A DNA stretch of 12,147 nt from Okeania sp. (GCF_035285525.1 NZ_JAYKGW010000040.1:1-12147); one strand, 5' to 3'. Positions 1 through 12,110 are shown, numbered from the stretch's first letter. Numbers and translations: made by a program. The notes: generated from the letters alone by a model not told the origin.

Positions 1-2
1 AT

Positions 3-242
3 GGAACTGAACCTGTTTACGAACCTATTGAATTTGAGAGCAATGTCTTACGGTTAGAAAATGAGGCGGAATATGTATTTACGGCTTGAGCAGGAGCGGA
101 TAGTCTATCGGTAGTGGATGCTAGCAATCCTGAAACTGTGGTTAACAATACTAGCAGCGAAGATTTAGCCTTGGCTAAGATTCCTGTAGGTGTTGATGGA
201 GTGGATCGCCCAGAGTCGTTGGCCATAACTGGGGATAGTTGA
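3..242 (+). pseudogene. Upstream segment (cut by the window edge) of the large secreted protein. It is a YVTN/LVIVD-like beta-propeller repeat region, interrupted by an in-frame TGA and one frame off from the 239..3688 ORF.
   Basis: My frame-3 translation reads GTEPVYEPIEFESNVLRLENEAEYVFTA*AGADSLSVVDASNPETVVNNTSSEDLALAKIPVGVDGVDRPESLAITGDS*. The TGA at 87-89 sits inside one repeat unit (YVFTA-x-AGADSLSVVDASNP). The frame ends at TGA 240-242, overlapping the TTG at 239. The motifs resemble YVTN/LVIVD propeller repeats and the paralogous fragment at 7007..7744 (KYLYVSNPHLSGSGDVLIFDV; NPRGIAITGGD). Confidence 0.4.
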
Positions 243-3200
243 GCGAACCTTGGAATGTATCTTTCTATGGGCAAGAGGATGATTTTAATCCTAACCGGAT
301 TCTCACAGCAACTTGGCAAAGAGACCCTGATGATGGTATCGGTAAGTGGACTTATGATGGCGGTAAAACCTGGATTGAAGGTGCCAATACTAGCTTCACT
401 ATTCCTGAAAATAGAACCCTAACAGCAGGTCAGACTTATTATTGGGCAGTAGAAACATTCTCCGAAAACGAACTACACCCAGAATTAGAGTTTGGTGAGT
501 TGACCACAGAGATTCCACCTGCATTAAATGGCGACGATACTTTCCACAGCGTCAGCTTATTAACTCACGGTTTCCAGTTTCCCGGAACAGTTTCAGGAGT
601 TCCCGAACGCTACTACGACCTAGCTGACGGTATTGCTAATCTGGATTCCGATACTGATGGGTTGATTTTAAGGTATGAACCTGCCACTGGTTACTGGGTT
701 CCTGTGAACGAACAGGGACAAGTGTTGTTTTCACCCTCTGGCAATAATTATTTAGCCGAGCTACGAGAATTTATCGCACCGGAAAATCCTGCCCCAGGCC
801 AAATTAATTATCTAGAATCTCAAACTCCAGTGGTACTGCTGGCAGATTGGTCTCATGATTCGAGCATTCCTGATTCTGGTTTTTCTGAAGCTGCTGCGGA
901 TTCTTTATTTGCCTCCCTGGTACAGTTAGACCAGTTGTTGATGGATGAAAATAGCGATACCACACAAGGACCTATTCTGAGTTCTCCCCTACACTTGATT
1001 GGTTTCAGTCGCGGTACTGTTGTTAATAGTGAAATCGTTCAACGCTTGGGTACTTATTTCCCCGAAGCGGGAGGTAAACCGGGAACGGGGCAAGGAGACT
1101 TACAGATGACGACCTTAGACCCCCATGATTTTGACCAACCAGGGTTGTCGTTGTTGGGGATAAATAGTTTTACTGATTTCCGGGAGCCAAAAGTTCAGGT
1201 TTGGGATCATGTGACTTTTGCCGATAATTATTATCAAACTGTTCCTAATTTACTAGCTAATTCTTTGACTCCAGCAGGTCGAGATATTCCTAATCTGCCA
1301 GCAACCGAGTCTGGTAAGACAGCAACTGGGTTGGAGTTCCCACGACAGGGGTGGCGATCAGAATCTCCCAATCCTAATGCTCCCTTATTAGGGGAACCCG
1401 ATCTGTCGGTTTTCTTAGGTACTAATAAGAATGAACCTGACTACAACCGCAGTCGAGCAGGTTTTACCAGGGAAACCGATCCGTTTTATGGTTTGGGAGG
1501 AACTCATACACGAGTACCTAGTTGGTATGCGGGAACTGTAGATTTGGAGTCGGTTAATTTTCCCAATAATGAGCAGTCTGATGAGCATGGGATTTATCGT
1601 CAACGGAGTGATGGGCGTTATGAGCAGTTTTTCGATAGCTCGTTTTCCTATGGAGAAGGGGTGACAAATAAACCGCGAGTCACTCCGTGGTACAGACCAG
1701 ACCACAAGCAAGCAGGTTTTAATGATAGTGCTGAGGATGCACCGAGTGAAGGTATAGGTACGGGTTGGTTTTATTCAGTGCTGGGTGGGGGTAAAGATTT
1801 GCGGACTCAAACTGGTGTAGATAAAGTGCCTGTTGATTTTGATAATACTTATGACGCGCAGATGCGGGGTGATTTTGCTGTGCCGACTTTGTTCAATGGT
1901 AATTTTGATGCGGTGTTTAATCCTAAAGGTACGTTTCGTAAGAGTGTTTCTCAAGCTATTCCGGGATGGTCTTTTCATGGTGGTGGGTCGGCAATAATGA
2001 CAAAACAGTTAGTGGATTTGAAAGGTGTGAGTACCTTGACAGAACACTTGAAAAATGTAGGTAACGATCCGACTTCAAAGGAGTATCAGACAGATTATGC
2101 GTTGCAACTCCGACCAGGGGATTCTATTACCCACAATCGCTTCGTGGTTCCCGACGAGGGTGTGCTGCGCTTCGATTTACACGTTCCTAACGCTGCCTCA
2201 AATCCACGTTTACCTACTAGCAGTATCAGAACCTTCATCAGAGCCAGCGATTCAACTAACTGGCAGCCTTTGACACCGACATTTACTTACAAAGCGCAAA
2301 ATCCAGCAGAACGAGGTGAAAATGCAGTGGGTTACTATGACTTTGTTAACGGACAATACATCGATCCCTACACTCGTCAGATAGATTACGGTCAAGAGGG
2401 ATTTGAAACCTTCCATATAGAAATCCCTGACGAACTGCGTGGCAAGTCTGCTCAACTGAGATTCGACTTAGGTAGCAGTAGTAGTCCAGTTTATCTTGAT
2501 AATGTCTTCTTCAAAAGTCAACATTTGATGTTAGGCAATCCCAGTTTTGCCAAACCTTCAGAAAATACTCACCGCGAGAATTATTTGATTGAAAAACCAC
2601 AGTATTCCTTGTCTTACAACGATGCGATTAAAGGTCCTAATTGGGTGAGTTGGCAGCTCAATCAGTCTTGGTTGGGAGGGTTAAATCGTATAGATATAGA
2701 ACCACGCACACCACCAGAAGGGTATAACGATCTCTTTCCCCCAGGCTTTGATGACAATTTCCCCGATTATCCTGATGGCGTTCGACCTGTTGATGGTACT
2801 TTTAGTCCTGTAAGTCGCAACAGTTTTCCATGGTCTTTAGATGACGAGCTTCCCGAAAATTGGGTAAAAACCCAAGGGGTTGATTACCTGATGAATAACC
2901 AAATTACTCCTCGACGTCTCGATCGCGGTCACATGGTTCCAGTAAGTTATCGAACTCGCAGCTTTAAAGATGGTTTTTCAACTTATCTAACAACAAATAT
3001 GCTCCCGCAACTTTCATTCGTTAACCGAACCGCAGGACCTTGGTTCCGGCTCGAAAGAGAAACCAGACTTGCGGTTGAAGGTAATAGCGATCTTGAGTTT
3101 AATATCATTGCTGGTGGAGTTGGTTACGACCCCACTCGGCAAGGACCAAGGGGAGACGATATCAGGTATCCAGCAGGACATCCTTTTGAAAATCATCCAA

Positions 3201-3688
3201 ATCCAGTTCCAGGAGTAGTCCAAAACTTTGTTGCCACGCAACAAAATGAAGAGACAGGGGAATGGGAGTACGTTCAAGATAGCAATGACAGAATTGTAAT
3301 CAACTTACGTGGCTCTAACGAATGGATTGCCAATCCCAAACAAATAGGAGTTCCTGACTACACTTGGAAGGTTTTCGTACCTTTGCATCCCGGTCAGGGA
3401 GCAGCCGACATCACGCAGAACACCCCTGTAACTGCCGTTATCTTCCCCAATGCTGACCCCAGGGGATTTCCAACGGTAACAATAGAGGACACTGAGTTTT
3501 ATCGGATACCATTGCCCAATGGCACGGAATTAACAATTGACAGTAACTCTGTGGGTGATTGGACTCAGTACGCTATCAGCGTCAGGGAGTTAGAAGATAT
3601 AACCGGCTACGACTTTTTCTCGGAGGTGCCCCGGGACATCCAAAACATTATCGAACCAAGAACCAACAGAGAGTTGTTCCTTGCTTAG
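239..3688 (+). CDS. Large multidomain secreted hydrolase or toxin-like protein. Domains in order: Fn3-like segment, lipase-like alpha/beta hydrolase, beta-sandwich (CBM/lectin-like) domain, C-terminal DNA/RNA non-specific endonuclease (NucA/Serratia nuclease family). The 5' end is probably not native and continues upstream in another frame.
   Basis: The open frame is uninterrupted for 3450 nt. The only start at the 5' end is the TTG directly after a TAG, and the first in-frame ATG is about 230 codons in. Lipase-like signals: SLLTHGF (HG at nt 566-571), VVLLADWSH, LHLIGFSRGT (GxSxG, Ser codon at 1007-1009), TLDPHDFD. Beta-sandwich signals: FNGNFDAVFNP...IPGWSFHGGG...LRFDL...VYLDNVFF (about nt 1880-2518). 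Nuclease signals (about nt 2522-3685): YSLSYNDAIKGPNWVSWQL, RRLDRGHMVP (nt 2921-2932), YLTTNMLPQ (Asn at 2996-2998), GPWFRLERETR, VPDYTWKVFVPL, VRELEDITGYDFFSEVPRDIQ. These are collinear with Serratia nuclease motifs (DRGH, N119, W..LE, YWKVIF, VDEIEKRTG). Confidence 0.85.
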   Translation: MSEPWNVSFYGQEDDFNPNRILTATWQRDPDDGIGKWTYDGGKTWIEGANTSFTIPENRTLTAGQTYYWAVETFSENELHPELEFGELTTEIPPALNGDDTFHSVSLLTHGFQFPGTVSGVPERYYDLADGIANLDSDTDGLILRYEPATGYWVPVNEQGQVLFSPSGNNYLAELREFIAPENPAPGQINYLESQTPVVLLADWSHDSSIPDSGFSEAAADSLFASLVQLDQLLMDENSDTTQGPILSSPLHLIGFSRGTVVNSEIVQRLGTYFPEAGGKPGTGQGDLQMTTLDPHDFDQPGLSLLGINSFTDFREPKVQVWDHVTFADNYYQTVPNLLANSLTPAGRDIPNLPATESGKTATGLEFPRQGWRSESPNPNAPLLGEPDLSVFLGTNKNEPDYNRSRAGFTRETDPFYGLGGTHTRVPSWYAGTVDLESVNFPNNEQSDEHGIYRQRSDGRYEQFFDSSFSYGEGVTNKPRVTPWYRPDHKQAGFNDSAEDAPSEGIGTGWFYSVLGGGKDLRTQTGVDKVPVDFDNTYDAQMRGDFAVPTLFNGNFDAVFNPKGTFRKSVSQAIPGWSFHGGGSAIMTKQLVDLKGVSTLTEHLKNVGNDPTSKEYQTDYALQLRPGDSITHNRFVVPDEGVLRFDLHVPNAASNPRLPTSSIRTFIRASDSTNWQPLTPTFTYKAQNPAERGENAVGYYDFVNGQYIDPYTRQIDYGQEGFETFHIEIPDELRGKSAQLRFDLGSSSSPVYLDNVFFKSQHLMLGNPSFAKPSENTHRENYLIEKPQYSLSYNDAIKGPNWVSWQLNQSWLGGLNRIDIEPRTPPEGYNDLFPPGFDDNFPDYPDGVRPVDGTFSPVSRNSFPWSLDDELPENWVKTQGVDYLMNNQITPRRLDRGHMVPVSYRTRSFKDGFSTYLTTNMLPQLSFVNRTAGPWFRLERETRLAVEGNSDLEFNIIAGGVGYDPTRQGPRGDDIRYPAGHPFENHPNPVPGVVQNFVATQQNEETGEWEYVQDSNDRIVINLRGSNEWIANPKQIGVPDYTWKVFVPLHPGQGAADITQNTPVTAVIFPNADPRGFPTVTIEDTEFYRIPLPNGTELTIDSNSVGDWTQYAISVRELEDITGYDFFSEVPRDIQNIIEPRTNRELFLA

Positions 3689-3713
3689 GAAGTTGTAAAT
3701 TCAAATTCGTTTG

Positions 3714-3739
3714 GTGGCAATCGCTTTACCGATTGCCAC
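3714..3739. terminator. Perfect 10-bp stem-loop between the convergent nuclease and PRP1 genes; candidate bidirectional terminator.
   Basis: GTGGCAATCG (3714-3723), loop CTTTAC, CGATTGCCAC (3730-3739) are exact reverse complements. It lies in the 77-bp gap between stop codons at 3688 (+) and 3766 (-). There is no strong U-tract on either side. Confidence 0.5.
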
Positions 3740-3765
3740 GCTTAACTTAGGCTTCAGTATGATGC

Positions 3766-4482
3766 TTAGAGTTTTCCAAAGGCTTCGCCATCTAAATAAG
3801 CATCTACCGCAAGCCTCCCGTCGGGCAAAATGGTGTGGTGAAGTTGAATATACTCAAAAGAAGGGGAAGCAAAATTGATCAGACCTCTGAAATCGACATT
3901 CATAAAGTAAATCTCGTTTCCAGTCATTCCTTGGAGATCGGCGTTTCGGAAATTAGAGTTTTCAATGGTAATATCCATCATTTGCACATTTCTTAAAGTT
4001 GCTCCTTCAAAATTGCAGTTTTGGATATTACCTTCAGACATGAAACGACACCCGTTAAGATTAGCTCTCTTTAAATTTGTATTCAACAAGCCAAGTAAGA
4101 CAGCTCCTTCAAGAGTCGCATCTTCCAGGTCGCATCTTTCAAAAGCGCCTTCACTTAGGCTGGCTTCTTTCAAACAAGCTCTTCTGAAGTTGCTGTCTTC
4201 AATCCAATCCAATCTGGCTTGGCTCAAGTTTGCTCCTTCAAAGTTGCTATTTTTAATCGAACTAAACCTGGCTTGGCTCAAGTCAGCACCTTCAAAGTTG
4301 CTATTTTTGACGCTACAGTAGGTTCCTCTCAAACAAGCTCCTTTAAAGTTGCTATTTTCAATCCCACTCAAAAATTTGGCCTCGCTCAAGTCAACCCCTT
4401 CGAGATCGAGATTGACAAGAGGAGTATTTCTAAATTCTCTTTGCCCTTGGGCATAGCATCTAAGTAGTTCTTTTGCATCCAT
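3766..4482 (-). CDS. Pentapeptide-repeat protein (PRP1), convergent with the nuclease gene.
   Basis: The sequence shows A(D/N)LXX-type repeats throughout, for example NFEGADLSQARF, NFEGANLSQARL, CDLEDATLEGAVL, NFRNADLQG. The N-terminus MDAKELLRCYAQGQREF and the C-terminus TILPDGRL are both typical of cyanobacterial PRPs. I prefer the ATG at 4482 (MDAKELL, matching the MNAEELL start of PRP2). The ORF track's TTG at 4497 is the alternative. Confidence 0.85.
   Translation of the reverse strand: MDAKELLRCYAQGQREFRNTPLVNLDLEGVDLSEAKFLSGIENSNFKGACLRGTYCSVKNSNFEGADLSQARFSSIKNSNFEGANLSQARLDWIEDSNFRRACLKEASLSEGAFERCDLEDATLEGAVLLGLLNTNLKRANLNGCRFMSEGNIQNCNFEGATLRNVQMMDITIENSNFRNADLQGMTGNEIYFMNVDFRGLINFASPSFEYIQLHHTILPDGRLAVDAYLDGEAFGKL
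4214..4321. repeat. Intragenic tandem duplication, 2 x 54 bp, inside PRP1 (encodes IKNSNFEGA(D/N)LSQAR units).
   Basis: Copy A is 4214-4267 and copy B is 4268-4321. They share perfectly conserved blocks ctggcttggctcaagt (16 nt) and ttcaaagttgctattttt (18 nt). A weaker third unit follows with a 51-nt offset (cctttaaagttgc at 4340). Confidence 0.85.
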
Positions 4483-4554
4483 AATTTTCTTTGACAACTC
4501 ATTGATACAATTTTAGGAGCTTTTCCTTTTAGTGTAAATATATTAACTAGAACC

Positions 4555-5037
4555 ATGATCGAGAAAACGAGCCGTAAATTCAATCAAGACGAACGCCTCT
4601 GGCGCATTGACGCTAAATGGGGAACTGTCGTGGATGGAAATGAAACCGACGATTTAATTCAAGTGCTGTGGGATGGAGAGTATAGCCCCCTACCTACTCC
4701 CACCATTGCCGTTATTAAGACTTCAGAAAAAGAACAATTTCTTGAAGAGATGCAGCAATTTTATCCTCCCTTTAGCTATTGGTGGCGACTCCAGGAAACC
4801 AAGGATTTCAAGGTAATTTTTGTTCAAAATGGTCCAGACGAAGATTCTTACTCCACTTTTGGTATCCATGCCCAATTTGAGGACTTAATCTATAATTTTA
4901 CTATTAATAATTTCAGCATTCCGCACAGGGGAGTGATTTCACAGGTGCGCATTTCTTTGAACAAAAAAAGAAGTTGGTTTGAGAAGTATAAAAAGAATTA
5001 TGCTTTTTTTGATGAAAACGGGCAAGTAGAGCTTTGA
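4555..5037 (+). CDS. Hypothetical 160-aa protein with no recognised domain. It is divergent from PRP1 and convergent with PRP2.
   Basis: ATG-initiated ORF with no overlapping competitor. I see no signal peptide or TM segment. The sequence is not repeat-like and I recognise no family (no resemblance to the NuiA sequence as I recall it). Confidence 0.6.
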   Translation: MIEKTSRKFNQDERLWRIDAKWGTVVDGNETDDLIQVLWDGEYSPLPTPTIAVIKTSEKEQFLEEMQQFYPPFSYWWRLQETKDFKVIFVQNGPDEDSYSTFGIHAQFEDLIYNFTINNFSIPHRGVISQVRISLNKKRSWFEKYKKNYAFFDENGQVEL

Positions 5038-5071
5038 TGCTTGAGACCAGATGCTTTTGAGTTTGCCTCCC

Positions 5072-5707
5072 CTAAACTAAAATTTTCCAATAGTCTTTAA
5101 TATACTCTCCTTCGGGAGTAGTAATAGTGTCAATAATGCACTCAGACCATAAATTGGAGCCAGCGATCCTGGCTCCAGTCAGATCGACATTTCCTAAGCT
5201 AGTTTCACAAAAAATTGCCCTCTCCAGATTAGCATTTTTCAAGCTAACATCCTGGAACATTGCTTGGCCTAAATTGGCTTCTATTAACAAGGCTTCATCA
5301 AGGTTGACTTGGAGTAAAGAAGCCTCCACAAGGCAGGAATTTTCTAAATTAGCTCTCTTCATGTTAGCATTACTAATTTCTATGTTTCCTAATCTTGCAT
5401 TTTTAAGATTGACTTCTTCCAGGTTAATATTTTTTAGATAGGCATCAAAAGAAACTTCCGTCAAATTAGCGTGATTTAGATTTACTTCCTCTAGTTCCGC
5501 ATACCTTAATCTAGCTTGAGTAAAATTGGCGCAACTTAAATTTACTCCTTTGAATTTCACTCTGTACAGTTTAGCTTGAGTGAAGTCGGCGTTGGTAAAG
5601 TTAGCTGCTTCAAGATGACAATCTCTTAATTCGATCCCTCTTAAGTCAGCACCAGTAAAATTCCTTTCTCCACCACTGTAACGTCTGAGCAATTCTTCCG
5701 CGTTCAT
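5072..5707 (-). CDS. Pentapeptide-repeat protein (PRP2).
   Basis: MNAEELLRRYSGGERNFTGADLRGIELRDCHLEAANFTNADFTQAKL... is a regular pentapeptide register over about 170 aa, with a TPEGEYI tail. By hand count it has about 30 D/E against 21 K/R, so it is acidic. Confidence 0.9.
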   Translation of the reverse strand: MNAEELLRRYSGGERNFTGADLRGIELRDCHLEAANFTNADFTQAKLYRVKFKGVNLSCANFTQARLRYAELEEVNLNHANLTEVSFDAYLKNINLEEVNLKNARLGNIEISNANMKRANLENSCLVEASLLQVNLDEALLIEANLGQAMFQDVSLKNANLERAIFCETSLGNVDLTGARIAGSNLWSECIIDTITTPEGEYIKDYWKILV

Positions 5708-5757
5708 AATTTGTATTCCAATAGAGATTCTACATTATCAACTATACAATTATTTGA

Positions 5758-6171
5758 TTAAAAAGCCTCAGTATAGTAACAATCAGACCATCGCAAGTTC
5801 CTAACAATCAAACCCTTGTGGGGCGGACTAATCCAAAACAGATTCCCGTTCCCGATTTCACCTGGAAGATTGCCACAGTCCTCGAACCTGGTCAAAGCCT
5901 TTCTGACATTGATGCCAATACCCAAGTTATTGCTTTGATTACACCAAATCGTCGGCCTCCTGCTGGTAAGACTGGGCCTGTCCAACTTCCAGGCGGGGAG
6001 ACGCGCCAAGTCGCTAACTGGGAACACTGGCCAAATTGGCGAGTTAATGTAAATTACCTTGAAGAGATTACGGGTTATGACTTTTTCTCAGATTTACCAC
6101 AGGAGATTCAACAGGTTATTCAGGCAGATGATTCGAGCGAGCTGACTTTACCTCTACAATCGAAACCATAA
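5758..6171 (+). pseudogene. Orphan, 5'-truncated C-terminal fragment of a second, divergent Endonuclease_NS domain that lacks the catalytic DRGH/Asn region.
   Basis: Translation from just after the TGA at 5755-5757 reads ...SIVTIRPSQVPNNQTLVGRTNPKQIPVPDFTWKIATVLEPGQ...ALITPN...WRVNVNYLEEITGYDFFSDLPQEIQQVIQ. This is collinear with the last ~135 aa of the large protein (RIVINLRGSNEWIANPKQIGVPDYTWKVFVPLHPGQ...AVIFPN...ISVRELEDITGYDFFSEVPRDIQNIIE). Homology runs up to the upstream stop, 50 bp from the PRP2 start. The only start is a GTG at 5818. Confidence 0.7.
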
Positions 6172-6219
6172 AATCTATGGAAATGCGAGTAGTCACCTCA
6201 GTTTACTGAAGAGCTATCA

Positions 6220-6921
6220 CTAATCAATCCCGTCGGAAGTAACAACGCTTCCGTCGGGCATGATAGTTTGCCTGTAGTATTCGAGAATCAGAACAGAACT
6301 TGCTCCGCGAAAGTCAGCAAATTCAGCATAATTATCATAACCGTCACAGTCTTCAAACCGTACATTTTGAAAGCAGGTATAGTCAAAGCCACTTCCGCAA
6401 ATTTTCGTTCTTACGAAGATAGCCTCTGTGAAATTACATTGCTCAAAAACGCATCTATCAATCTTTGCCCCACAGAGGTTTACTCGTTCTAGGTTCGCTC
6501 TATCAAAGCCACAATAAAACAACACGGTTCCTTCTAGATTGACATTTACCAGACAAGCCATATCAAAAAAGCTCTCCAAAATATTGGCTTCTTGAAGGTC
6601 TGATCCGTTGAGATTAGCGTCAGATAGACGGCAATCATATAATTCAGCACCCCTGAGATTTGCCCCCTTGAGGTTAGCGTCAGATAGCTCGCAGTTCCAC
6701 AATTCAGTACCTCTGAGATTAGCACCTTCAAGATTAGCATCATCTAATACAGCAAACTTGAGTTTAGAACCACTAAAATTGATTCCCGGAAGGTGTGCCC
6801 CTTTTAGTTGGAGACCTTCCGAACGGTGTTCCCCTTGCAACTCCAGCCCAGAAAAATCTCTTTCACCTGCTGCATATCGCTCCAGTAATTTTTTAGTTGT
6901 TATCTGCATTATGCGTGTCAT
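6220..6921 (-). CDS. Pentapeptide-repeat protein (PRP3), convergent with the orphan nuclease fragment.
   Basis: TKKLLERYAAGERDFSGLELQG is followed by GANLRGTELWNCELSDANLKGANLRGAELYDCRLSDANLNGSDLQEANI..., with a TIMPDGSVV tail. GGAGAG lies 6 nt upstream of the ATG at 6921 (minus sense: taggagagtaactATG). Confidence 0.9.
   Translation of the reverse strand: MTRIMQITTKKLLERYAAGERDFSGLELQGEHRSEGLQLKGAHLPGINFSGSKLKFAVLDDANLEGANLRGTELWNCELSDANLKGANLRGAELYDCRLSDANLNGSDLQEANILESFFDMACLVNVNLEGTVLFYCGFDRANLERVNLCGAKIDRCVFEQCNFTEAIFVRTKICGSGFDYTCFQNVRFEDCDGYDNYAEFADFRGASSVLILEYYRQTIMPDGSVVTSDGID
6608..6727. repeat. Intragenic tandem duplication, 2 x 60 bp, inside PRP3, equal to 20 aa (four pentapeptides).
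   Basis: Copy 1 (6608-6667) and copy 2 (6668-6727) match at 46 of 60 positions by my hand alignment. They encode GANLRGAELYDCRLSDANLN and GANLRGTELWNCELSDANLK. Confidence 0.85.
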
Positions 6922-7006
6922 AGTTACTCTCCTAAATTTAGATTAGATCGTCATCTTCAGTATATCCAATTCTTCCTAATCTGATGATTTTGATAACCCT
7001 GCTGTA

Positions 7007-7744
7007 GTGCTTAACAGTGGTAATGTGGGAATCATCCAAGACCCATTAGGTGAGAATCCTGAGTTGGTGGCAGCGACTCGACCACTTCCAGACCATTTAA
7101 CTCACGATTTGGTGTTGAGTAATGATGATAAGTATTTGTATGTTTCTAATCCCCATTTGAGTGGTAGCGGTGATGTGCTGATTTTTGATGTGGAGGAGAT
7201 AATCGAGACGTTGTTATCCCCAGGGGATTATGAGATTGATGTTTTAGACCGGGGTGTGGGTTCTCCATTTTTTGATGAGAGTACGGCACGGATGGTGACG
7301 GAGAATGATTTTGAGTTTGTGCCCATTGATGATATTAATCCGGATATTAGTATAGCTGCTGATTTTGAGATTCTGCAAGAGGACAGGCCGCGTAATCAGT
7401 TTGTGTTTGGAGTGCCCGATGATACGACCAGGGGTCCGGTGGCGATTGGAGGGAATCCACGAGGGATTGCGATTACTGGTGGTGATTGGTTGGATTTGAC
7501 AGGGCCAACATCTACAACTGAAGACCTCTTACCAGAGTTTAAATGGGAGTTTGAGTATCCTGATGAAATTGAAGAGATCAACCTATTTGTGAGCGTGTTT
7601 GAGCAAAATGAGGGTTTACTGCCATGGGATAATTTTGTGGATTTATCCGGTCCTAATGGCAACCCATTTCTCGCAGACCAGGGACTGATAAGGAAGGCAG
7701 AAGGAAAAGAAAGGTTCTTTGGGATAAGGTTTTTTTATAACTGA
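7007..7744 (+). pseudogene. Isolated internal fragment of a YVTN/LVIVD-like beta-propeller protein, paralogous to the region at the window start. It lacks a native start and ends in an apparently unrelated tail.
   Basis: The frame opens immediately after a TAG (7004-7006), with only a GTG as start. It contains DDKYLYVSNPHLSGSGDVLIFDV and VAIGGNPRGIAITGGD (compare EYVFTA.AGADSLSVVDASNP and DRPESLAITGDS at 3..242), followed by an Fn3-like start (LPEFKWEFEYPDEIEEINLFVSV). The last ~20 aa (GLIRKAEGKERFFGIRFFYN) are low complexity. By my hand counts, GC is like that of the large gene (~48 percent). Confidence 0.5.
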
Positions 7745-7768: not shown

Positions 7769-7815
7769 ATCTGGTTCTCCTTGTTTCTTAAAGAGGGAAA
7801 GTTTGTAGTTGGTAG

Positions 7816-7847
7816 AGGGTTTGGAGACTAAACTCCTACAGTTTTTT
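7816..7847 (+). terminator. Intrinsic-terminator-like hairpin plus T6 within repeat copy 1.
   Basis: AGGGTTTGG, loop AGA, CTAAACTCCT form 9 pairs (including one G:U) with one bulged T, followed by ACAG and TTTTTT (7842-7847). Confidence 0.4.
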
Positions 7848-7895
7848 CACGAATGATTTCTTGTTTCTTAAAGAGGGAAAGTTTGTAGTTGGTAG

Positions 7896-7928
7896 AGGGT
7901 TTGGAGACCAAATCCCTACAATTTTTTT
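7896..7928 (+). terminator. Intrinsic-terminator-like hairpin plus T7 within repeat copy 2.
   Basis: AGGGTTTGG, loop AGA, CCAAATCCCT form 9 Watson-Crick pairs with one bulged T, followed by ACAA and TTTTTTT (7922-7928). It sits where the plus-strand fragment and minus-strand trmH converge. Confidence 0.45.
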
Positions 7929-8647
7929 CACGAATGATTTATTCTTTTTTTCTTCCTTCTTTCTTCTTCCTTCAAGAAGAAAAATTTCTTCTCAATAAGT
8001 TCTCCTGCTTTAATAGATTTGCGCAACCAATCTAATTCTAAATCTAATTTTTCTGCTTCAGTTAATTCCCAATTATGATGTTCTTTTTTGAGGCGGTTAA
8101 TTACATCATATAAACATAGAGCAACACTAACAGAAATATTAAAACTTTCGCTAAATCCCATCATGGGAATTTTTACTAATACATCTGCATAGTTTTGAGC
8201 ATATTCTGATAAACCACTAATTTCTGAACCAAACATTAATGCTACTTTTTTGTTGACAGATAATTGTTCAATAGTTATCTCTTCTTGATAGAGAGTTGTT
8301 GCTGCGATTGTATAACCTTGACTTTTTAATTTATGCAAACATTCATCTGTATTATTTATGCCTTGTTGATTATAACGATGTAATGTTAGCCAACGATCTG
8401 AACCAATGGTTACACCATGAGTAACTGTAAAAATATTTTTATTCTCTACAATATGCACATCTTGTACACCAAAACTATCACAACTTCTGAGGACGGCACT
8501 AGCATTGTGGGGTTGATAAATATCTTCTAAAATAACAGTAATGTAGCGGGTTCGTTGCTGTAAAACTGATAAAATTTTTTGCCGACGGGCGACACTGGCA
8601 AAGTTACTTAAGTAAGTAATTAATTCTTGTTTTTCTTGTAGTTTCAT
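7928..8647 (-). CDS. trmH: tRNA (guanosine-2'-O)-methyltransferase, SpoU/TrmH family.
   Basis: All three SpoU motifs are present: LEDIYQPHNASAVLRSCDSFGV (compare E. coli TrmH KPHNVSAIIRTADAVGV), ALMFGSEISGLS, and IPMMGFSESFNISVSVALCLYD. The size (239 aa) fits TrmH, with a K/E/R-rich C-terminal tail. Confidence 0.85.
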   Translation of the reverse strand: MKLQEKQELITYLSNFASVARRQKILSVLQQRTRYITVILEDIYQPHNASAVLRSCDSFGVQDVHIVENKNIFTVTHGVTIGSDRWLTLHRYNQQGINNTDECLHKLKSQGYTIAATTLYQEEITIEQLSVNKKVALMFGSEISGLSEYAQNYADVLVKIPMMGFSESFNISVSVALCLYDVINRLKKEHHNWELTEAEKLDLELDWLRKSIKAGELIEKKFFFLKEEERRKKKRINHS

Positions 8648-10372: not shown

Positions 10373-11134
10373 TTAGTTACTTAAAGCACGCAAAAACTTT
10401 TGAATTTCTGTTAATAATCTTTTCCGTTTTGGCGGAGCAGTTAATGTCTCAGAGGACGAAGTAGAGTTATCTGCATTAGTTGCACCAGTAGCTTCAGCTA
10501 AAATTATATCTACTTCATCTCCGAGTGGTTTCTGTGGTCTTTCTGCAATTAATTTATACTGGCCATTTTCTAAGAGCAAAATTTGCCAGGGGGAAGGATA
10601 ACAACGATATAATGCTGCCTCACCTAGAGACCTGATGTAATAGCAAGATTCAATAGTTTTGATAAATCTTTCCCTAACTTGACGTGCGGCATAACCAATT
10701 CCCACAATAGATACATCCTCTAATTTAGGGATCAACATAATAACTGGGCGATCGCCAGCCAGATTAGACAATTTTTCAGCTTGGGCCACTTCTACAGCAG
10801 AAGGAGCTATTAATAAAAAACATTGGTCTTCGGGTTGAACTTTTTGGTCAACTGGAGACCTACTTGTGCCAATATCTTCTATTTTAAATGTGGCATCTTG
10901 CCAATCTCGTCTGGCTAAAGCTGCTGCTCCAGTGTCAGGAAAAAAGACTTTAAGCTGAGTACCTATTTCTAGTAAAGCAGGAATAAATTGTTTTGCCAAA
11001 GATTGAGCTTGAAGTTCGATATCTGGAACAATTATTTCAATTTGGAGTCTTTTATGACCATCTTGAAGAGCTGCTTTTGTAGCCTCCATTGCCTGGGCGA
11101 TCGCTTCGTTTATATCATTGGGTAATTTAGTCAT
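10373..11134 (-). CDS. Conserved cyanobacterial/plastid-lineage hypothetical protein, probably DUF1995 family.
   Basis: The 253-aa ORF has an N-terminus LPNDINEAIAQAMEATKAALQDGHKRLQIEIIVPDI that resembles DUF1995 proteins as I remember them. It contains two HIP1 sites. The family assignment is from memory and has not been searched. Confidence 0.6.
   Translation of the reverse strand: MTKLPNDINEAIAQAMEATKAALQDGHKRLQIEIIVPDIELQAQSLAKQFIPALLEIGTQLKVFFPDTGAAALARRDWQDATFKIEDIGTSRSPVDQKVQPEDQCFLLIAPSAVEVAQAEKLSNLAGDRPVIMLIPKLEDVSIVGIGYAARQVRERFIKTIESCYYIRSLGEAALYRCYPSPWQILLLENGQYKLIAERPQKPLGDEVDIILAEATGATNADNSTSSSETLTAPPKRKRLLTEIQKFLRALSN
10748..10755. repeat. HIP1 (highly iterated palindrome) octamer GCGATCGC.
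   Basis: Exact GCGATCGC read in the sequence. Confidence 0.95.
11097..11104. repeat. HIP1 octamer GCGATCGC.
   Basis: Exact GCGATCGC read in the sequence. Confidence 0.95.
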
Positions 11135-11165
11135 CTATCTTAATATTTACTAAAATATATTGTGA

Positions 11166-11193
11166 TTGACAGAAGATTAAAAAAAAATATCTT
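11166..11193 (+). promoter_or_regulatory. Candidate sigma70-type promoter for the 11244 ORF.
   Basis: TTGACA (11166-11171), a 16-nt A-rich spacer, then TATCTT (11188-11193), about 50 nt upstream of the ATG. This is a pattern match only. Confidence 0.3.
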
Positions 11194-11243
11194 CGTTAGT
11201 TTTCATAACCATAACTAAGTATATAGTTAAACTGGGAAAAAAT

Positions 11244-12110
11244 ATGACACAAAATCATCCTTTTGAAAAATCAACTGAGGAACTAAAAGAATATTTACAA
11301 ATTAGTCAAGTTGAAGGAAATTATGCAGTTAATAACTCCATGGAACCTGTAACTACTCTGGCAATAGGAGAAGAAGGTGGAAATGGTTTTACAACTGAGG
11401 TATTAGGAGAAGCAGGTGGTGCAACTACTTTAGCATTAGGAGAAGAAGGTGGCGATTTTCCTGATGCAACTACTTTAGCAATAGGGGAAGAAGGTGGAGA
11501 TGGTATGACAACTGAGGCATTGGGAGAGGAGGGTGGTGCAACTACTCTGGCAATAGGGGAAGAAGGTGGAGGTTTCAATGAAGAGATTTATCTGGAATTT
11601 TATCCTGAGGTTAATGTTGCTATCAATAGAGGAGAATTAAGTTCTGGTTGGGAACATTACCTTCAGTTTGGAGTATTTGAAGCTGAACGGATAGGATTTT
11701 TTACAGGTACTAATAGTAATGATATTATTACTGCTTTTGGCAACAATAACAGAATTATTGGTGTTAATACTCTAGGATATGATTTGGTAAATGATGAAAT
11801 AATTCCTAATAGTTTTGGTGTGGGAGAAATTGATGTATTAATTGGTAGTTTTGGAGTAGGAACAACAGACAAATTCATACTGGGTTTTTCTCAAGAATCG
11901 CCTTTTTATGTTGGGTTGGGAAGTTTCGATTTTGCTTTAATTAAAAACTTTGAAGTCGATTTCGACGAAATTCAATTATCAGGAAATTTAGATGATTATA
12001 GTCTGGAAATTATTAATAACTCGGTGAATATATCTATCCAATCGGGAGATTTAATTGCGATTATAGAAAACTTACCATCTCTAGATAATTTGAGGATTAA
12101 TTTTGTTTAG
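11244..12110 (+). CDS. Repeat protein: N-terminal 6 x TT-x4-EE-GG motif array followed by a degenerate RTX-like C-terminal module of the kind seen in cyanobacterial Ca-binding proteins.
   Basis: ATG-initiated 288-aa ORF. Residues 37-109 read TTLAIGEEGGNGF TTEVLGEAGGA TTLALGEEGGDFPDA TTLAIGEEGGDGM TTEALGEEGGA TTLAIGEEGG. Then comes YLEFYPEVNVAINRGELSSGWEHYLQFGVFEAER. The C-terminal part has GTNSNDIITAFGNNNRIIGV, GEIDVLIGSFGVGTTDKFILG and FDEIQLSGNLDDYSL, typical of cyanobacterial hemolysin-type Ca-binding-like proteins. Confidence 0.8.
   Translation: MTQNHPFEKSTEELKEYLQISQVEGNYAVNNSMEPVTTLAIGEEGGNGFTTEVLGEAGGATTLALGEEGGDFPDATTLAIGEEGGDGMTTEALGEEGGATTLAIGEEGGGFNEEIYLEFYPEVNVAINRGELSSGWEHYLQFGVFEAERIGFFTGTNSNDIITAFGNNNRIIGVNTLGYDLVNDEIIPNSFGVGEIDVLIGSFGVGTTDKFILGFSQESPFYVGLGSFDFALIKNFEVDFDEIQLSGNLDDYSLEIINNSVNISIQSGDLIAIIENLPSLDNLRINFV
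11352..11570 (+). repeat. Imperfect tandem nucleotide repeats (33-45 nt units) encoding the TT-x4-EE-GG motifs.
   Basis: The recurrent block is actact(c/t)t(g/a)gca(a/t)tagg(a/g)gaagaaggtgg. Coordinates were derived from codons 37-109 of the ORF. Confidence 0.85.

Follow-up and report, generated by a model that had tools for sequence, protein, structure and literature searches.

Pentapeptide-repeat proteins as putative immunity proteins for NucA-type nuclease domains of giant proteins in filamentous cyanobacteria

A contig of Okeania sp. (referred to as the window, meaning all 12,147 nucleotides [nt] of it, with positions counted from its first letter) carries a damaged gene for a giant protein ending in a NucA-type DNA/RNA non-specific endonuclease domain, an orphan nuclease C terminus, and three minus-strand genes coding for pentapeptide-repeat proteins (PRPs; PRP1 to PRP3), all of them present where an earlier reading of the sequence (the original prediction) had placed them. 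The region is probably a partly decayed toxin/immunity array belonging to a polymorphic-toxin-like family of filamentous cyanobacteria, in which the PRPs would bind and inhibit their cognate nucleases, and we give this reading a probability of about 0.8. PRPs encoded after the NucA-type domains that giant proteins carry very probably represent a novel type of immunity protein against nucleases, because a convergent PRP gene occupies the slot in which small NucA-type nucleases keep the inhibitor NuiA. The proposal that the PRPs are cognate immunity or inhibitor genes, already made in the original prediction, is strongly supported by comparative genomics, with PRP enrichment beside the nucleases, co-variation of the two partners, and apparently intact catalytic residues all pointing the same way.

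The neighborhood of these nucleases was sampled by scanning for the nuclease domain in one genome per GTDB species, which yielded 79 loci (loci and contigs are given L numbers). Twenty-four are giant-type, with the nuclease lying within a protein of ∼1450 to >4700 amino acids (aa) that has the upstream regions of the window gene, and 55 are small-type, in which the nuclease is a 260- to 460-aa protein, in most cases with a hydrophobic, signal-peptide-like N terminus. A PRP gene starting no more than 1 kb downstream of the nuclease end is present at all 29 giant-type modules (counted with the window included) and at none of the 46 remaining small-type ends (Fisher p 2e-21), and the difference persists among the 19 giant-type modules left once close duplicates are removed (19/19, p 8e-17), although the loci share descent and such counts are not independent trials. 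The PRP is convergent with the nuclease in 28 of the 29, many at a distance of 16 to 300 nt, and three further orphan nuclease ends are also accompanied by a PRP. The modules span at least 20 species-level genomes, including those of Tychonema, Okeania, Microcoleus, Lyngbya, Geitlerinema, Oscillatoria, Phormidium, Desertifilum, and others, and the enrichment proposed as a check by the original prediction is thus found well outside the window.

PRP genes are common in cyanobacteria, with many per genome, and adjacency by chance alone would be compatible with that abundance and with the N-terminal cap (N-cap) of the window PRPs, which occurs also in PRPs unlinked to nucleases (for example, in L069) and falls in the stretch aligning to the start of the NCBIfam Alr5209 PRP model. 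However, the background density at the small-type loci is 7 genes in 939 kb (0.0075/kb), at which 19 independent matches would have a probability of ∼4e-41, and against this background stands the contrast of 29/29 with 0/46. Position, spacing, and strand of the PRP are moreover kept across genera even though nuclease identity is only 30 to 50%, and coincidence is so improbable an explanation that it can be set aside.

The commonest neighbor of the small NucA-type genes is a gene of ∼131 aa lying ∼200 to 240 nt downstream, and its product is NuiA, the known inhibitor of NucA (2O3B_B, E 2e-36). NuiA is present in 36 of the 55 small-type loci (within L017 to L079), with 38 copies in total, every one of them on the minus strand and convergent with the nuclease; the same search found no NuiA-like open reading frame (ORF) in any of the 24 giant-type loci (Fisher p 8e-9 versus small-type), the window itself lying outside that search. 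Beside homologous nucleases, PRP and NuiA fill the same position on the same strand and exclude each other, and no other single argument speaks as strongly for the PRP having taken over the task of NuiA. The convergent orientation, listed in the original prediction as a caveat, has become a supporting argument: the convergent layout is conserved in the NucA/NuiA pair, and convergence therefore supports PRP immunity. A minority of nuclease-linked PRPs lie on the same strand as the nuclease (L001 11927-12493, L003 11088-11654, L005 1404-2096, and L087 473-2222), so the convergent orientation is preferred rather than obligatory. Some small NucA-type genes of Microcoleus (L031, L037, and L042) are without NuiA; there, a convergent gene at +36 nt codes for a membrane protein of 104 aa and another gene, ∼1.6 to 1.8 kb downstream, for a membrane protein of 680 aa with pentapeptide repeats, and these membrane proteins may be a third kind of nuclease partner.

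Nuclease subtype and PRP subtype co-vary, which the original prediction had proposed as a check. A Mantel comparison of nuclease-end similarity with the similarity of the adjacent PRPs gives a rho of 0.42 (p 8e-4), which falls to a marginal 0.26 (p 0.046) after dereplication, and where a module has a close relative, its nuclease and its PRP mostly find their top matches in one and the same module of another genome. PRP1 illustrates this at two distances: in L086, a nuclease 60% identical to that of the window is overlapped by 4 nt by a convergent PRP that is 54% identical to PRP1, including its unusual C terminus, and in L088/L089, the nuclease C terminus is 96.6% identical and the PRP1 homologue 88% identical to those of the window. 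For PRP2, the top database match (E 6e-84) and a homologue with 94% identity are found in L002 (Okeania sp. KiyG1) and L087, where the PRP2-like genes are convergent and lie 31 to 53 nt past the end of one nuclease subtype; the two nucleases are 98.6% identical to each other and of a subtype not present in the window. The PRP3 homologue of L087 (302 aa) follows the same orphan nuclease C terminus as in the window, with near-identical N and C termini but an overall identity of 58% because of extra coils. PRP1 would accordingly be read as the partner of the nuclease domain in the window, PRP3 as the partner of a nuclease that has been lost except for its last 117 aa, and PRP2 as an orphan immunity gene whose nuclease is present in other Okeania-like genomes such as L002 and L087.

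The nuclease end and its PRP are also exchanged together beneath a conserved protein body. Compared in 30-residue blocks with the giant protein of L004 (uncultured Lyngbya), the window protein is 60 to 100%, mostly 73 to 100%, identical over aa 499 to 798, but from ∼aa 815, just past the motif NWVSWQLNxSWLG, identity drops to 0.17 to 0.6, mostly 0.3 to 0.4, and the PRP of L004 is of a subtype other than that of the window. Similarly, the first 380 aa of the body (the "bigN" part) are 80% identical in L033, where the nuclease is only 30 to 33% identical. Many main genes are followed by cassettes in which a piece of the conserved body ("bigM") is joined to a nuclease end and a convergent PRP, for example, in L003, L006, L014, L033, L050, and L087, and the segment of the window formed by the orphan C terminus and PRP3 (5818-6921) is an orphan toxin-tip/immunity cassette. 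In genes that read through, the PRP lies directly after the nuclease domain and not at the end of the gene. To judge from these comparisons, the PRP is linked to the nuclease end and not to the rest of the giant protein. A truncated PRP1 homologue in L090 (1171-2660) adjoins an ISAz013-type transposase gene, which is another sign of cassettes in recombination-prone regions.

This pattern of exchange bears on whether the giant proteins are weapons at all. Their relatives contain Ig-like, cadherin-like, PKD, and DUF4114 domains and a lactonase-type propeller, with one weak RHS-repeat match, and such adhesin-like domains, together with the lack of identified delivery machinery, would suit a nuclease that works at the surface or outside the cell to scavenge DNA or remodel the matrix, with the PRP guarding the cytoplasm before export and nuclease variability reflecting drift; NucA/NuiA, the closest characterized system, works in this way. 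Against such housekeeping self-protection are the sharp switch of identity, mostly from 73 to 100% down to ∼35% within a single gene and coupled to a swapped PRP, the orphan nuclease-end/PRP cassettes that keep a stretch of the conserved body, and the arrays of unpaired PRPs, all of which are hallmarks of polymorphic toxins (PMC3482391). We consider the housekeeping explanation unlikely, though far from negligible.

Nor is adjacency, even with co-variation, able to distinguish an inhibitor from an adaptor, a regulator, or a chaperone for folding or export that is tied to the nuclease, and there is a hint of such a role, near T6SS effectors, in the title of Kim et al. 2021, where the term "T6SS accessory proteins" is applied to a PRP and a DUF2169 protein. 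But orphan PRPs and poly-PRP arrays, as in poly-immunity loci, persist without a partner, a habit commonly seen in immunity genes that would serve no purpose in chaperones. An example is L080, where the PRP1 homologue is an unpaired third PRP behind a different nuclease and still has with it the last 27 nt of the window-type nuclease gene. The PRP also replaces a proven inhibitor, NuiA, at the same spot, and a non-specific nuclease made in the cytoplasm with its catalytic residues apparently in place would need neutralizing. An accessory role without inhibition is therefore regarded as improbable, and an immunity function is preferred.

The nuclease domain in the window is a clear member of the NucA group. 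It matches Pfam Endonuclease_NS (PF01223; cut-off 23 bits) at aa 771 to 1132 of the big ORF with 92.6 bits (E 3.7e-26), starts with HLMLGNPS at aa 762, and aligns to Anabaena NucA (2O3B_A, 1ZM8) with an E value of ∼1e-31. In the alignment to 2O3B and 1ZM8, the catalytic motifs LDRGHMVP (DRGH), TNMLPQ (Asn), and RLERE (the downstream Glu) are retained, and the His and Asn columns are invariant across a 35-sequence alignment, so that the domain is apparently catalytically intact. The description of the nuclease as intact holds for the domain, with its DRGH, Asn, and Glu, but not for the gene, which is damaged upstream of position 239. Relative to NucA, the domain has three insertions of ∼35, ∼75, and ∼32 aa, and it is variable from ∼aa 815 on, the distal ∼330 aa being hypervariable. 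An AlphaFold2 (AF2) model built from an input alignment of 35 sequences has a predicted local distance difference test score (pLDDT) of 84.9 and a predicted TM-score (pTM) of 0.87, and its top Foldseek matches are 2O3B_A and 1ZM8 (NucA; E ∼1e-20, target TM-score 0.87). The first, ∼35-aa insertion is modeled with low confidence, and the ∼75- and ∼32-aa insertions are predicted to form extra beta structure. Homologues of the conserved body (aa 1 to 761) lie directly upstream of the nuclease domain in 20 to 25 loci, and the body (aa 1 to 760/761) has no Pfam match and no PDB sequence match, even at E values up to 1. A GFSRG motif in the body was considered as a hydrolase nucleophile elbow and is discounted as a mere impression from reading the sequence.

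The three PRPs of the window score 76.6 to 123.7 bits with the Pfam Pentapeptide profile (cut-off 20.2 bits; E 1e-21 to 2e-36), fitting a family defined by at least eight tandem repeats of the A(D/N)LXX type, and the profile searches suggested in the original prediction thus assign both partners to the expected families. The shared ELLxRYxxGxRxF-type N terminus that had been described is present, with KLL in place of ELL in PRP3, but it was rejected as a sign of recent paralogy: pairwise identity among PRP1 to PRP3 is only 32 to 35%, and the cap belongs also to unlinked PRPs and to the Alr5209 model stretch. Two of the three reversed PRPs (PRP1 and PRP3) do face a nuclease C terminus, as proposed, but the tail-to-tail partner of PRP2 is an ORFan (orf160) and not a nuclease. 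The gene for PRP1, on the opposite strand, is separated from the nuclease stop by 78 nt, and the AF2 model of PRP1 (pLDDT 91.9) consists of an N-terminal helix cap followed by a beta-helix, with Foldseek matches to HetL, Np275/276-derived solenoids, QnrB1, AlbG, and MfpA; as modeled, PRP1 is a beta-helix, quadrilateral and right-handed. None of the window PRPs belongs to the NCBIfam Qnr or MfpA families, the best scores being 45.6 to 57 bits against cut-offs of 240 to 500. PRP2 has exactly the 30 D/E and 21 K/R residues that had been counted by hand; the PRPs of the modules have a median isoelectric point (pI) of 4.5 (n = 55), no signal peptide, and lengths spread from 146 to 357 aa.

On this evidence, a giant multidomain protein that ends in or contains a NucA-type beta-beta-alpha-metal endonuclease would act as a toxin, and a cytoplasmic, acidic PRP of 150 to 330 aa, encoded immediately downstream and usually tail-to-tail, would bind the cognate nuclease domain and keep it inactive inside the producer, with protection probably extending to sister cells. 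The PRP would in this way do for the giant proteins what NuiA does for small secreted NucA. The absence of a signal peptide, the N-cap, the predicted beta-helix, and the acidity fit a cytoplasmic, DNA-like inhibitor. MfpA, Qnr, and AlbG act at the DNA-binding sites of enzymes, and NuiA, the positional analogue, blocks the active site of NucA (PDB 2O3B). Because of the known behavior of the former three and the acidity of the module PRPs, the rod-shaped beta-helix may lie in the DNA-binding groove as a mimic of the duplex, and subtype specificity suggests contacts with the variable nuclease insertions; we regard this mode as the likeliest and put it at about even odds. Binding at an exosite, for example, at the subtype-specific insertion subdomains and in the manner of the colicin Im proteins, is the other way in which a PRP could confer immunity. 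Specificity tracks the hypervariable part of the nuclease, including the ∼75- and ∼32-aa insertions with their predicted structure, the nuclease domain, too, is acidic overall, and PRP length varies greatly, all of which speak for an exosite, whereas the precedents of MfpA, Qnr, AlbG, and NuiA speak for the groove. The exosite alternative is a real possibility but one that we consider less likely than not.

Several observations weigh against the immunity reading or against parts of it. The overall pI of the nuclease domain is 4.65, and charge complementarity to an acidic PRP is not evident, so charge alone is no argument for DNA mimicry; most PRPs, moreover, are acidic in general. The N-cap, like the C-terminal TIMPDG-type motif, is also present in PRPs unlinked to nucleases and is no mark of nuclease partners. 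Any tightly linked pair would be expected to stay adjacent and to be inherited together, and these features show a functional link rather than inhibition, and the co-variation is marginal once close duplicates are removed. No T5SS/CdiA, Rhs, PAAR, LXG, or MAFB-type trafficking module or secretion signal was identified in the giant proteins, the N termini of which are cut or uncertain. A scan of positions 3500 to 7100 of the window gave promoter and terminator counts at or below shuffled expectation; one promoter-like site (10/12) upstream of PRP1 at 4538-4510(-) has no statistical weight. Finally, the main nuclease gene has a TGA codon (Table 1) where L087 has TTA and has lost ∼480 aa, including the propeller, at 237/238. 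Because of this nonsense codon and the upstream deletion, the gene in the window may be a pseudogene and the local system inactive.

Table 1. Features of the window and antisense-embedded PRP genes of related loci
Feature	Locus	Coordinates	Strand	Remarks
N-terminal remnant of giant nuclease gene	Window	1-238	+	Other frame than big ORF; TGA at 87-89
Big ORF	Window	239-3688	+	1149 aa/codons
Giant-protein conserved body, bigN + bigM, aa 1-761	Window	239-2521	+	Ends in junction motif VYLDNVFFKS
NucA-type DNA/RNA non-specific endonuclease domain, aa 762-1149	Window	2522-3688	+	Pfam, NucA alignment, AF2/Foldseek
PRP1	Window	3766-4482	-	Pfam Pentapeptide; AF2 beta-helix model; predicted partner of 2522-3688 nuclease
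orf160, 160-aa ORFan	Window	4555-5037	+	Head-to-head with PRP1, tail-to-tail with PRP2
PRP2	Window	5072-5707	-	Pfam Pentapeptide; putative orphan, cognate nuclease not in window
Orphan nuclease C terminus, last ∼117 aa	Window	5818-6171	+	41% identical to big ORF aa 1032-1148
PRP3	Window	6220-6921	-	Pfam Pentapeptide; adjoins nuclease remnant 5818-6171
orf245, giant-gene beta-propeller fragment	Window	7007-7744	+	Corresponds to ∼aa 410-640 of L001 protein; truncated on both sides
Two tandem copies of 80-nt element with short hairpin	Window	7780-7947		TRF
Antisense PRP gene	L012	11078-11797	-	
Antisense PRP gene	L024	4935-5390	-	
Antisense PRP genes (three)	L028	10216-11679	-	
Antisense PRP gene	L046	8660-9139	-	
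Antisense PRP gene	L058	12136-12630	-	

The damage at the 5′ end can be traced by comparison with intact relatives. By blastx against the giant protein of L001, window positions 9 to 236 correspond to aa 85 to 160 and positions from 239 onward to aa 644 onward; the remnant region is 86% identical in nucleotide sequence to L087 6895-7134, and homology to the intact relatives stops at ∼237. The propeller region reappears on the far side of PRP3 as orf245, the homologues of which are directly upstream of bigN in 16 loci (by tblastn) and which is 89% identical in nucleotide sequence to L087 7858-8339, inside an intact 1689-aa gene. An intact giant gene thus begins in L087 where orf245 lies in the window, past PRP3, and the right end of orf245 and the left end of the big ORF are adjacent points in the intact protein. 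This arrangement could stem from recombination between paralogues or from sequences wrongly joined in a short draft contig. An independent Logan assembly (L085) is 100% identical to the window over 1418-7084, so the order big ORF, PRP1, orf160, PRP2, orphan C terminus, PRP3 is not specific to one assembly; L085 spans the 6982-7017 junction but not the one at 237/238. Since orf245 is a piece of the propeller-coding part of another giant gene in this family, it was rejected as a partner of PRP3.

The orphan nuclease C terminus matches the end of the big ORF with an E value of 8e-24, but it covers only positions 156 to 222 of the 223 in the Pfam model and contains no catalytic motifs; because only the end of the model is matched, it cannot be an active enzyme. 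The same orphan C terminus is present in L087 (91% aa identity) and in L004 (87%), where its ORF is broken and its PRP has been lost. The ORFan orf160 has no Pfam, NCBIfam, or PADLOC match and no similarity to the big ORF, and a database search returned a single homologue cluster (P0001, 90% identical). Besides this cluster there are a few near-identical copies on metagenome contigs, those on L088/L089 being 95.6% identical, and a copy adjoins the PRP1 homologue wherever DNA exists on that side (L080 to L083, L088, and L089); in L088/L089, orf160 is better conserved than PRP1 (95.6% versus 88% aa identity). A role for orf160 as a second type of toxin was considered and rejected, as it matches no family, does not resemble the big ORF, and accompanies PRP1 rather than PRP2; no link between it and nucleases could be detected.

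Beginning 36 nt past the stop of the truncated orf245 are the tandem copies of an 80-nt element (period 80, 2.1 copies, 92% matches; 2 matches versus 0 expected in shuffles) with the internal hairpin GGTTTGGAGACCAAACC; at the breakpoint, this may represent a mobile or repeat element of small size. A 288-aa ORF at 11244-12110, with tandem GEEGG-rich repeats of a 117-nt period at 11351-11569, is unrelated to the nucleases and PRPs. Scans of the window for tRNA genes and Rfam families gave no matches, and an anti-phage defense reading of the region was dropped because there were no PADLOC matches.

An unusual arrangement is found in five relatives (L012, L024, L028, L046, and L058), in which PRP genes lie wholly antisense inside a still-open giant ORF. 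In L012, L024, L028, and L046, the nuclease-bearing giant ORF reads on through the antisense strand of the PRP, the two frames coinciding, and beyond the PRP it enters, in frame, a conserved region containing HExxH, which is followed by PKD repeats in L012 and L046 and also by Ig-like and DUF4114 domains in L012. The arrangement differs in L058 (a complete Waterburya chromosome, ∼10500-11800), where the nuclease domain is split by an insertion sequence with a transposase-like ORF and the PRP sits inside a downstream ORF bearing the nuclease C terminus and the HExxH region. All seven antisense, minus-strand PRPs have full N- and C-terminal caps, and they contain no TTA, CTA, or TCA codons, which would create stops on the opposite strand, whereas all other PRPs examined have 4 to 46 antisense stops (4 to 22 among those of ordinary size). 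Calculated from each locus's own codon usage, the chance of zero stops is 2e-3 to 9e-7 per gene, and both strands therefore appear to be under coding constraint; these look like genuine long overlapping genes on both strands. The window PRPs, with 6, 15, and 9 antisense stops, do not have this pattern. The fullest form of the proposal, that PRPs are an unrecognized immunity class neutralizing His-Me finger NucA-type toxins through mimicry of duplex DNA and that in one clade they lie antisense and codon-aligned inside the toxin ORF, we rate as only slightly short of an even bet.

Hints of PRPs as partners of toxins are present in the literature, but no description or test was found for NucA-type nucleases or for cyanobacteria. 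YjbI-like PRP genes have been reported beside GH-E His-Me finger toxins by Jablonska et al. 2017 (PMC5714182), where they are described as being of unknown function and no immunity gene was found. A 2026 preprint, relying on annotation and predicted structures, mentions a PRP-annotated antitoxin of a Mycobacterium chelonae type VII secretion system (T7SS) toxin, which was first predicted to be an ADP-ribosyltransferase and is treated as a nuclease by the preprint authors. The survey of Zhang et al. 2012 (PMC3482391) gives Imm36, Imm-SUKH, and Imm-NTF2 as the immunity families of Tox-NucA, with cyanobacteria outside the listed range, and its operons consist of same-strand genes only, head-to-head pairs being examined separately and tail-to-tail pairs unmentioned. 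The established PRP functions in a 2021 review (PMC8145042) are gyrase protection by MfpA, Qnr, and AlbG and the toxin-receptor domain of SV2C, and a PRP nuclease inhibitor is mentioned neither there nor in a 2026 review of nuclease inhibitors. Our literature search found no characterized PRP nuclease inhibitor, in agreement with the original prediction, which had known of none.

Cyanobacteria code for dozens of PRPs in each genome, almost none with a known role, and a conserved, subtype-matched pairing with nucleases provides a testable function for one subgroup; if the immunity reading is true, part of this large pool would acquire a defined function. Nuclease toxins with dedicated inhibitors are already known as such, but the PRPs would enlarge the set of folds from which nuclease inhibitors and immunity proteins are built by a new one, and they point to a polymorphic-toxin-like system in filamentous cyanobacteria, a phylum not listed for Tox-NucA in the 2012 survey. 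They also offer a possible explanation for the unexplained PRP genes beside GH-E nuclease toxins in proteobacteria. The antisense-embedded PRPs of the five genomes would be unusually well supported long overlapping bacterial genes, in which toxin and antidote, if they are such, would be written on two strands of the same DNA and their inheritance coupled.

Among known systems, the polymorphic toxins (Tox-NucA and the orphan modules of Rhs and CdiA) are similar in having a conserved body, a variable C-terminal nuclease, and an adjacent variable partner, as well as orphan cassettes with a piece of the conserved body and poly-immunity arrays; they differ in that here the opposite strand usually carries the partner, an arrangement not typical of polymorphic toxins, and in that no Rhs, CdiA, PAAR, or LXG-like trafficking module is identified here. 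The GH-E toxins likewise have a PRP beside a His-Me finger nuclease of the same superfamily as NucA, but these and the M. chelonae toxin belong to other toxin families and other organisms and are neither NucA-type nor cyanobacterial. MfpA, Qnr, and AlbG share the fold class, the acidity, and the approximate size of the window PRPs, but their target is DNA gyrase, whereas the genomic partner of the window PRPs is a non-specific nuclease. The closest parallel is Anabaena NucA/NuiA (PDB 2O3B, 1ZM8, and 1J57). NucA is a secreted protein of ∼270 to 330 aa with a signal peptide, whereas the nuclease here is a hypervariable domain of a giant protein with three insertions, and the partner is a PRP beta-helix rather than a NuiA homologue; yet the window nuclease is a clear NucA homologue in sequence, predicted fold, and catalytic residues, and in both systems the partner gene lies just downstream, tail-to-tail with the nuclease (for the PRPs, in 28 of 29 modules).

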